A DNA stretch of 64,000 bases from Escherichia phage WPEC4. Every line of letters starts with the position of its first letter. The stretch's first letter is position 1. The notes beneath the pieces were generated by a model that was not told where the DNA came from, searched no databases, and saw only the letters and a program-made list of their open reading frames with translations. The stretch lies in the sequence record PV682947.1; one strand, given 5' to 3'. This document shows positions 28,859 through 28,944 of the stretch, in pieces. The translations under genes were made by a program, and so were the position numbers.

Positions 28859-28944
28859 GATGAGTTGGCTGAATGGTTTAAGCGGCGGACTGTTAATCCG
28901 TGTTCGAAAGAACGATATAGGTTCAAATCCTATACTCATCGCCA
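28859..28944 (+). tRNA. atypical tRNA-Asn (anticodon GTT) with long variable arm
   Basis: Anticodon arm GCGGACTGTTAATCCGT; extra hairpin GTTC-GAAA-GAAC in variable region; 3-bp D stem; G73; CCA. Confidence 0.5.

Follow-up and report, generated by a model that had tools for sequence, protein, structure and literature searches.

The stretch of DNA analysed here (the window) comprises 64,000 nucleotides (nt) of the Escherichia phage WPEC4 record PV682947.1, with positions counted from its first letter, and derives from a phAPEC8-like Escherichia coli myovirus of the genus Phapecoctavirus. ARAGORN delimits a tRNA cluster at 28068-29993 on the plus strand, and the surrounding region (28000-30100) matches Escherichia phage WPEC2 at 100% identity and many named relatives at 97-99.8%. 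One member of this cluster, a tRNA-Asn gene with a long variable arm, is the subject of the present analysis. ARAGORN called it as tRNA-Asn(gtt) at exactly 28859-28944 (plus strand, 86 nt), and the Rfam covariance model RF00005 aligned to it over model positions 1-71 with 62.0 bits (gathering score, 29 bits). Since a 12-nt hairpin is aligned by RF00005 as an insertion within the variable region, the hairpin lies inside the tRNA. The minimum-free-energy (MFE) fold is a cloverleaf plus a 4-base-pair (bp) extra hairpin (-23.7 kcal/mol), with a z-score against shuffled sequences of -1.7, which is weak taken alone. The parts of the gene are as follows.

28859-28944, plus strand: whole tRNA-Asn(GUU) gene, encoded CCA included (ARAGORN, Rfam RF00005, MFE cloverleaf)
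28859-28865, plus strand: acceptor 5' strand GATGAGT, giving G1-C72, A2-U71 and U3-A70 (compensated changes relative to phi92)
28868-28883, plus strand: type-II-like D arm with a 3-bp stem GCU/AGC, a G13.A22 mismatch and the loop AAUGGUUU (sequence parse)
28884-28901, plus strand: G26 and anticodon stem-loop GCGGA-CUGUUAA-UCCGU (18/18 match to E. coli asnT)
28892-28894, plus strand: anticodon GUU in the loop CUGUUAA (ARAGORN, sequence parse)
28902-28916, plus strand: 15-nt variable region, with the hairpin GUUC-GAAA-GAAC at 28902-28913 followed by unpaired GAU at 28914-28916 (Rfam, MFE fold, covariation)
28917-28933, plus strand: T arm AUAGG-UUCAAAU-CCUAU (Rfam, alignment, sequence parse)
28934-28940, plus strand: acceptor 3' strand ACTCATC, partner of 28859-28865 (sequence parse)
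28941, plus strand: discriminator G73 (sequence)

The original prediction, made from the letters of the window, had described a 12-nt hairpin GTTC-GAAA-GAAC in the variable region, a canonical tRNA-Asn anticodon arm, a 3-bp D stem and G73, and all four were found: the hairpin stands where it had been placed, G26 and the anticodon stem-loop are identical to those of E. coli K-12 asnT at 18 of 18 positions, the D stem is GCU/AGC with the G13.A22 mismatch, and G73 lies at 28941. The check that it had proposed, by ARAGORN and covariance scoring, returned tRNA-Asn(gtt) and 62.0 bits, and RF00005 placed the hairpin inside the tRNA, the opposite of the outcome that had been named as counting against it. 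Of the Ser/Tyr-type features, the long arm, the 3-bp D stem and a Tyr-like arm geometry are present but a Ser-like arm geometry is not. The variable region exceeds 10 nt and forms a stem-loop (15 nt, 4 bp, GAAA loop), and the 3-bp D stem is combined with a non-Watson-Crick 13.22 (G13.A22), a trait of type II tRNAs. U8 and G9 stand between the acceptor and the D arm, and the acceptor/T architecture is 7/5 (7-bp acceptor, 5-bp T stem). If the last variable base is taken as position 48, an A15-U48 Levitt pair is possible; with this crude position indexing, 15-48 is G-C or A-U in 45 of the 81 listed family members, compared with 29 expected under independence.

A decaying pseudogene or an annotation artefact was considered as another reading of the gene. 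Its conservation goes beyond chance: the gene is present in approximately 66 Phapecoctavirus records at ≥95% identity, and the differences within the genus amount to two substitutions, both at unpaired positions. Relative to phi92, fully compensated changes are found in the extra arm (GTTC/GAAC versus GAAC/GTTC), the acceptor stem and the T stem. Broken copies of such genes do occur, as in the phage SelmaRatti (Bas34), where the acceptor stem does not pair and ARAGORN makes no call. However, the copy in the window folds perfectly, scores 62 bits and has evolved by compensatory change, and the pseudogene or artefact reading is thus effectively refuted.

The extra arm itself was examined in an alignment (A1) of 26 family members with 15-nt variable regions. 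Double compensatory changes occur in three of the four arm pairs (49-58, 50-57 and 51-56 of A1), one pair being GC in 10 sequences, AU in 8 and UA in 7. Pairing is found in 94.8% of arm cells, versus 29-45% once the 3' partners have been shifted by 1-3 columns; the observed covariation score was reached in 0 of 500 shuffles, and covariation in the arm helix is on a par with that in the T stem. Among the long-arm genes listed, there are 65 distinct stem/loop combinations with a mean stem of 3.37 bp (versus 2.36 in shuffles), and the loop is GAAA in 21 of these 65 arms. The D arm also departs from that of bacterial tRNA-Asn, in which 13-22 is paired in 78 of 78 genes (73 Watson-Crick, 5 GU); a non-canonical 13.22 is present in 45 of the 81 listed long-arm genes versus none of those 78, and takes the form G.A in 34 of the 81, including the window tRNA. 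G.A at this position is also found in 36 of 63 phage tRNA-Leu and 14 of 56 phage tRNA-Ser genes from the same loci. Judged from these alignments, the extra arm is under selection as a helix and is probably retained in the mature tRNA, with a core that has adapted to it (3-bp D stem, G13.A22).

In the textbook rule, long variable arms in bacteria are restricted to Leu, Ser, Tyr and Sec tRNAs. Full-length blastn matches that retain the arm were nevertheless found in phi92-like phages (85 nt), Klebsiella myoviruses, the T4-like Serratia phage CHI14 (81 nt) and T5-like phages (82-83 nt), all annotated plainly as tRNA-Asn. One 83-nt version is present in approximately 290 T5-like genomes, SP15 and BASEL phages among them. 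When IMG/VR was scanned for Asn anticodon arms with an over-long spacer after them, at least 120 loci were obtained, in which ARAGORN independently called at least 112 tRNA-Asn(gtt) genes of ≥80 nt; at least 82 unique long-arm sequences, the window's included, remained after deduplication. Those listed have variable regions of 11-22 nt, a median pairwise identity of 66%, and fall into 28 clusters at 80% identity.

For a comparison of bacteria and viruses, the same unbiased pattern (gap 6-30) was applied to both collections. The bacterial genomes gave 142 matches, 141 standard and one long. In these loci 133 bacterial tRNA-Asn(gtt) genes were called, and none of them reaches 79 nt. Long forms were thus found in 17 of 120 viral loci versus 0 of 133 bacterial tRNA-Asn genes (Fisher p = 1.6e-6). 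The lone long bacterial match, from Actinomadura bangladeshensis (locus L180, 4700-4775), was rejected as a tRNA-Asn, being uncalled by ARAGORN, with A73 and the look of a 3' fragment. It consists of an anticodon arm, a 9-nt hairpin, a T arm and ACCCGCC-A-CCA, without a D arm, and could be what is left of the attachment site of an integrated element. Where tRNA-Asn genes are embedded in tRNA clusters, about one quarter are long (~14 long versus ~42 short), and in a scan with the anticodon stem unconstrained, 8 of 112 additional phage tRNA-Asn genes had a long arm. No significant match to the 86-nt gene was present in 5,426 complete E. coli genomes. Relative to the bacterial tRNA-Asn genes sampled, the long-arm tRNA-Asn is therefore a widespread, phage-restricted class. 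It is also apparently undescribed: no description was found in the literature searched, although earlier notes are possible, for example in the older T5 tRNA literature, and the arm is unmentioned in van den Berg 2023, Azam 2024, Belukhina 2025, the Sf14 study, Mukai 2017, the Schlafen paper and the Giegé-Eriani review. In the Schlafen paper, which concerns bacteria, 'type II tRNA' appears just in the reference list.

The extra-arm phenomenon is broader than Asn. In the listed phage loci, extra arms of ≥9 nt occur on tRNA-Thr(UGU) (11/49), Cys (8/32), Trp (7/29) and Ile (7/55), for example on the 87-nt tRNA-Thr(tgt) genes of loci L009 and L071, each of which has an extra hairpin arm. A few are also found on Glu, Ala, Gln, Asp, Gly, Pro and Met tRNAs and on 2 of 64 Lys tRNAs, and none on the Arg (0/77) or His (0/30) tRNAs of these loci.

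The amino acid that such a tRNA would carry depends on which synthetase recognises it. The complete known identity set of the E. coli asparaginyl-tRNA synthetase (AsnRS) consists of the GUU anticodon and G73, and can be transplanted to another tRNA body (PMC9976931), in agreement with what the original prediction had stated of this enzyme. Both elements (G34-U35-U36 and G73) are present in the window tRNA, and G73 is kept in 78 of the 81 listed long-arm relatives. Charging with tyrosine can be set aside. A73 is found in 41 of 41 phage tRNA-Tyr genes, and the window tRNA has G73 and GUU in place of the A73 and GUA read by the tyrosyl-tRNA synthetase (TyrRS); TyrRS is excluded because of G73 instead of A73, G73 being an antideterminant against this enzyme (PMC9976931).

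Serine requires closer consideration, since the original prediction had proposed that the tRNA could be a dual-identity substrate, charged by the seryl-tRNA synthetase (SerRS) through its long arm and G73, so that Asn codons would partly be read as Ser. As had been stated there for the long arm and G73, and in agreement with the literature, recognition by E. coli SerRS is independent of the anticodon and depends on the long arm and the tertiary shape, with help from G1-C72, G2-C71 and G73. [quoted passage not shown] Moreover, Ser is approximately 2-3 fold enriched among the nearest-neighbour tRNA bodies of long-arm Asn genes, and G2-C71 is even present in the T5-like and CHI14 versions. G73 is uninformative between the two amino acids because it is common to both identity sets. 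In contrast, the window tRNA has A2-U71 and U3-A70. G2-C71 is invariant among the tRNA-Ser of E. coli and present in 56 of 56 tRNA-Ser genes of the same phage loci, 50 of which also have A3-U70. The arm differs as well: phage tRNA-Ser arms have stems of 4-8 bp with 0-1 unpaired 3' bases in 42 of 56 genes, whereas in the long-arm Asn genes the stems measure 3-4 bp and are followed by 3-4 unpaired 3' bases (57 of the 81 listed), a tRNA-Tyr pattern to which the window tRNA, with a 4-bp stem and three unpaired 3' bases, conforms. The first pair of the 56 phage tRNA-Ser genes is G-C in 52, A-U in 3 and G-U in 1, and in none is it U1-A72, the pair found in 58 of the 81 listed long-arm relatives.

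Codon usage bears on the same question. Asn codons make up 53 per 1000 (5.3%) of the open reading frames of the window (AAT 31.0 and AAC 22.4 per 1000), and E. coli uses approximately 39 per 1000; at 5.3%, appreciable insertion of Ser would therefore amount to proteome-wide damage. The tRNA is also the only tRNA-Asn of its phage, and in the relative phage nieznany the long-arm gene is the sole tRNA-Asn among 10 tRNAs. Together with the asnT-identical anticodon arm, these observations make a dual-identity or serine-accepting tRNA improbable, although serylation at a low level is conceivable from the sequence. The other option that the original prediction had left, simply an expanded tRNA-Asn, fits the GUU anticodon, G73, the anticodon arm and the structure. 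From the identity marks (GUU with G73, the asnT-identical arm and the non-Ser marks), the high Asn codon use and the sole tRNA-Asn of nieznany, we infer that the window tRNA accepts asparagine.

Several points weigh against an asparagine-charged, functional tRNA, in addition to the Ser-compatible features and the tRNA-Ser(GCU) described above. U1-A72 is a hallmark of bacterial tRNA-Asn and a GatCAB determinant, with U1 as the first base of 123 of the 133 bacterial tRNA-Asn(gtt) genes sampled, and the window tRNA has G1-C72 instead. Tolerance of the long arm by AsnRS is not self-evident, because class IIb synthetases approach the tRNA from the variable-loop side. In addition, consensus promoter matches in the region are in total no more numerous than in shuffled sequences, among them a promoter-like site upstream (28416-28445, listed below) that is the probable transcription start for the tRNA-Asn. 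U1-A72 is, for its part, not in the E. coli AsnRS identity set (PMC9976931). On balance, the feature in the window is probably a genuine, expressed, functional and Asn-charged phage tRNA-Asn with a type-II-like body, a reading to which a probability of roughly 70% is assigned on sequence grounds.

With respect to origin, recent duplication of the neighbouring tRNA-Tyr was rejected as a general explanation (similarity of 0.545 versus a background of ~0.5 across loci), although in the window the tRNA-Asn and tRNA-Tyr acceptor stems differ by one pair. A single body donor was likewise rejected, as nearest-neighbour bodies are just 2-3 fold enriched for Ser, Tyr and Cys, and no particular neighbouring tRNAs are clearly enriched across loci. 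The D arms of the long-arm genes are of several types. In an Erwinia-phage group the D arm is essentially that of E. coli tRNA-Asn, and the variable loop holds an inserted hairpin. This variety points to several origins, or to much exchange among phages.

The following features were noted around the gene.

21551-21955, minus strand: P-loop kinase AAA_33
21956-22888, minus strand: Rnl1-type RNA ligase
22890-23441, minus strand: metallophosphoesterase
23957-24313, minus strand: cREC_REC cyclic-phosphate-processing receiver protein
28416-28445, plus strand: promoter-like TTGACA-18-TAGATT with a TG extension, upstream of the Ser-Ser-Tyr-Asn-Thr run (consensus match only)
28454-28544, plus strand: long-arm Ser(UGA)-like element with an odd D arm, missed by ARAGORN
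28765-28852, plus strand: long-arm tRNA-Tyr(GUA), Rfam 39 bits, missed by ARAGORN
28946-29034, plus strand: uncalled tRNA-like element directly 3' of the tRNA-Asn
29036-29110, plus strand: tRNA-Thr(UGU)
29838-29912, plus strand: tRNA-like stretch between tRNA-Ile and tRNA-Met
30624-35186, plus strand: TelA / vWA-TerF / TerD (tellurite-resistance-like) cassette directly downstream of the tRNA cluster

The four minus-strand genes form an RNA-repair cassette (21551-24313), 5-7 kb upstream of the tRNA-Asn, that is like the T4 system healing nuclease-cut tRNA. The Ser(UGA)-like element has a sub-threshold match to tRNA-Sec (37 bits) as its sole Rfam match, and in phi92 the corresponding gene is marked as a pseudogene. 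The acceptor of the tRNA-Tyr, GGTGAGT, is one base pair off that of the tRNA-Asn. The element at 28946-29034 is homologous to the T5 'rna3, putative tRNA-like RNA' (NC_005859 33877-33949), which directly follows the T5 tRNA-Asn, and to the stretch following the phi92 tRNA-Asn; it has a conserved 5' block TGTAGAGTTAA, a T-loop-like ATCGAAT, and terminal helices that covary (GGACTTG/CGAGTCC, TCTGTG/CACAGA, GCTTG/CAAGC). The stretch at 29838-29912 has a T arm GCTGGTTCGAATCCAGC and the ends TCCCGT/ACGGGA, and was called by neither ARAGORN nor Rfam. Downstream, nieznany has lysis and terminase genes after the tRNA cluster instead of the TelA/TerD cassette, which therefore seems to have been inserted in the lineage of the window phage.

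In the favoured reading, host AsnRS would read GUU, in a host-identical anticodon arm, and G73 and charge the tRNA with asparagine, and the charged tRNA would decode AAC and AAU, which are heavily used by the AT-rich phage. More speculatively, the role of the arm may lie in counter-defence. In this proposal, the extra arm and remodelled D arm would reshape the tRNA body, such that body-reading host nucleases would bind it poorly, while the intact anticodon arm would still serve AsnRS and the enzymes that make the Q34 and t6A37 modifications. The AriB nuclease of PARIS is an example of an enzyme that would fit a long-arm body poorly. AriB cleaves host tRNA-Asn(GUU) at 40|41, and the T5 Lys, Thr and Asn tRNA variants jointly neutralise PARIS; restoring the cleavage site in T5 tRNA-Lys did not restore cleavage, and in an AlphaFold 3 model the second AriB monomer touches the D loop (PMC12409363). 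AriB needs contacts beyond the cleavage site, the D loop included. The RNA-repair cassette 5-7 kb upstream of the tRNA-Asn belongs to the same defence context.

The T5-like phages offer a comparison at a single locus, exemplified by T5 (locus L347, 6953-7030; NC_005859 33952-34029) and SP15 (locus L464, 7559-7638). The T5 tRNA-Asn has a short arm and a mutated, poorly paired anticodon stem (GCAUC-UUGUUAA-GUUGA; 134 records), whereas the alternative in approximately 290 genomes combines the long arm with a host-identical stem. From their sequences, the short-arm/mutated-stem and long-arm/canonical-stem alleles look like two solutions to one problem.

A number of observations count against a counter-defence role. 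The exact AriB site, U36-A-A-U-C|C41, is retained within the anticodon arm of the window tRNA at 28884-28901 (site per PMC12409363). The SP15 long-arm tRNA-Asn gave no rescue from PrrC170, a nuclease that targets tRNA-Lys. Long arms are approximately 2-fold commoner with canonical anticodon stems (17/120 versus 8/112), but at p = 0.09 the proposed tie between the two is weak and was not retained. The other isotypes with extra arms (Thr, Cys, Trp and Ile) are a poor match to nuclease targets, given the low counts for Lys (2/64), Arg (0/77) and His (0/30), and in SP15 the long arm is present only in Asn and not in Thr or Lys. Weighing these points, we regard shielding of the tRNA by its arm from body-reading host nucleases as the leading idea for the role of the arm, but a tentative one. 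More doubtful is the broader proposal that extra arms, on Asn above all but also on Thr, Cys, Trp and Ile, form a general and so far unrecognised counter-defence in which a type-II body is adopted and the anticodon arm kept.

It is also possible that the tRNA-Asn is functional and its arm has no part in counter-defence, and we would not put this above a minority reading either. The arm could stabilise the folding of an AT-rich, possibly under-modified tRNA, aid processing from a polycistronic transcript, or be the locked-in relic of a chimera between a type-II body and an Asn anticodon arm. GNRA-capped hairpins are generic stabilisers, and GAAA caps 21 of the 65 distinct arms; extra arms are found on many other isotypes in the same phage loci with no clear tie to nuclease targets, and with a remodelled core, loss of the arm may be costly. 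A pure relic, however, leaves unexplained the 28 listed clusters (80% identity) with several types of D arm and an arm that is always kept, the absence from sampled bacterial tRNA-Asn, and the two T5-like alleles at one locus. Very improbable, in turn, is a mainly non-translational decoy, in which a host-identical anticodon arm on a foreign body occupies a nuclease or modification enzyme. The anticodon arm is exactly host-like, AriB site included, and some over-expressed viral tRNAs might inhibit AriB by competition (Belukhina et al., PMC12409363), but the features of a full tRNA are kept (G73, encoded CCA, 7-bp acceptor stem, canonical T loop), Asn codons are in high demand, and no second tRNA-Asn is present in the phage.

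Further candidates were rejected. Joint gain of arms by all PARIS targets is contradicted by SP15, with a long arm only in Asn, and by the short tRNA-Thr(UGU) of the window. This tRNA-Thr(UGU), which lies near the tRNA-Asn, has a U31·U39 mismatch atop its anticodon stem and C41; E. coli tRNA-Thr(UGU) has the AriB site sequence of tRNA-Lys, with A41, and an A41-to-C change in tRNA-Lys reportedly inhibits AriB cleavage strongly. Bas34 was considered as a natural test of AriB sensitivity, but Bas34 is SelmaRatti, whose tRNA-Asn gene is a broken chimera without an ARAGORN call, and it is therefore uninformative on this point. The SelmaRatti gene (locus L462, 6598-6681; MZ501103 ~72597-72680), annotated as a 77-nt tRNA-Asn, is of the long-arm type, and its 3' acceptor ACCCGCT is unable to pair with the 5' GGGTCGT. 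This broken gene could explain why Bas34 needs exogenous T5 tRNA-Asn against PARIS (Belukhina et al. 2025). A link to the 'tRNA amidotransferase' of T5 and SP15 was also dropped, as its YqeY-like match is below threshold (25.4 bits; cut-off, 27) and it has no homologue in the window.

Type-II-bodied tRNA-Asn is thus common in phages, including the T5 relatives used for work on tRNA-targeting immunity (SP15, BASEL), and its annotation in databases carries no remark on the arm. Should AsnRS charge it, the tolerance of the synthetase would extend to a new tRNA architecture, which would be useful in tRNA engineering; were the counter-defence reading true, a class IIb AsnRS would be shown to tolerate a type-II body. 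If the arm protects from tRNA-cleaving defences, it would represent a new, second and structural mode of phage immune evasion, and would help to explain why some phage tRNAs have host-like anticodon arms.

In comparison to known tRNAs, the window tRNA shares with asnT the GUU anticodon, G73, all 18 positions of G26 and the anticodon stem-loop, and the 7/5 architecture, but in asnT the variable loop is 5 nt long, the D stem has 4 bp and the first pair is U1-A72, whereas the phage tRNA has a 15-nt hairpin region, a 3-bp D stem with G13.A22, and G1-C72. Bacterial type II tRNA-Tyr is similar in its short arm stem of 3-4 bp, three unpaired 3' bases, 3-bp D stem and Q-family anticodon G-U-N, and differs in A73 and GUA; the co-resident tRNA-Tyr genes have no special similarity to the long-arm Asn genes (0.545 versus ~0.5). 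With bacterial type II tRNA-Ser the long arm, G73, G1-C72, U8-G9 and G13.A22 are shared, but the phage tRNA lacks G2-C71 and A3-U70, has three rather than 0-1 unpaired bases, and carries an Asn anticodon arm. The allo-tRNAs (Mukai et al. 2017, PMC5389517) are likewise non-canonical long-arm tRNAs of bacteria and phages with an anticodon unmatched to the body type; they have 8/4 or 9/3 architectures and Ser or Ala identity, however, and the window tRNA, with its 7/5 architecture and Asn marks, is therefore not an allo-tRNA. Finally, like the phage tRNAs that evade nucleases (van den Berg 2023; T5 tRNA-Lys, Thr and Asn against PARIS; SP15 tRNA-Tyr against Retron-Eco7), it is a phage copy of a nuclease-targeted tRNA, in a cluster next to Thr(UGU). 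The evasion described for those tRNAs is by mutations of the anticodon loop or stem, whereas in the window tRNA the anticodon arm is intact and an extra arm stands on the body.

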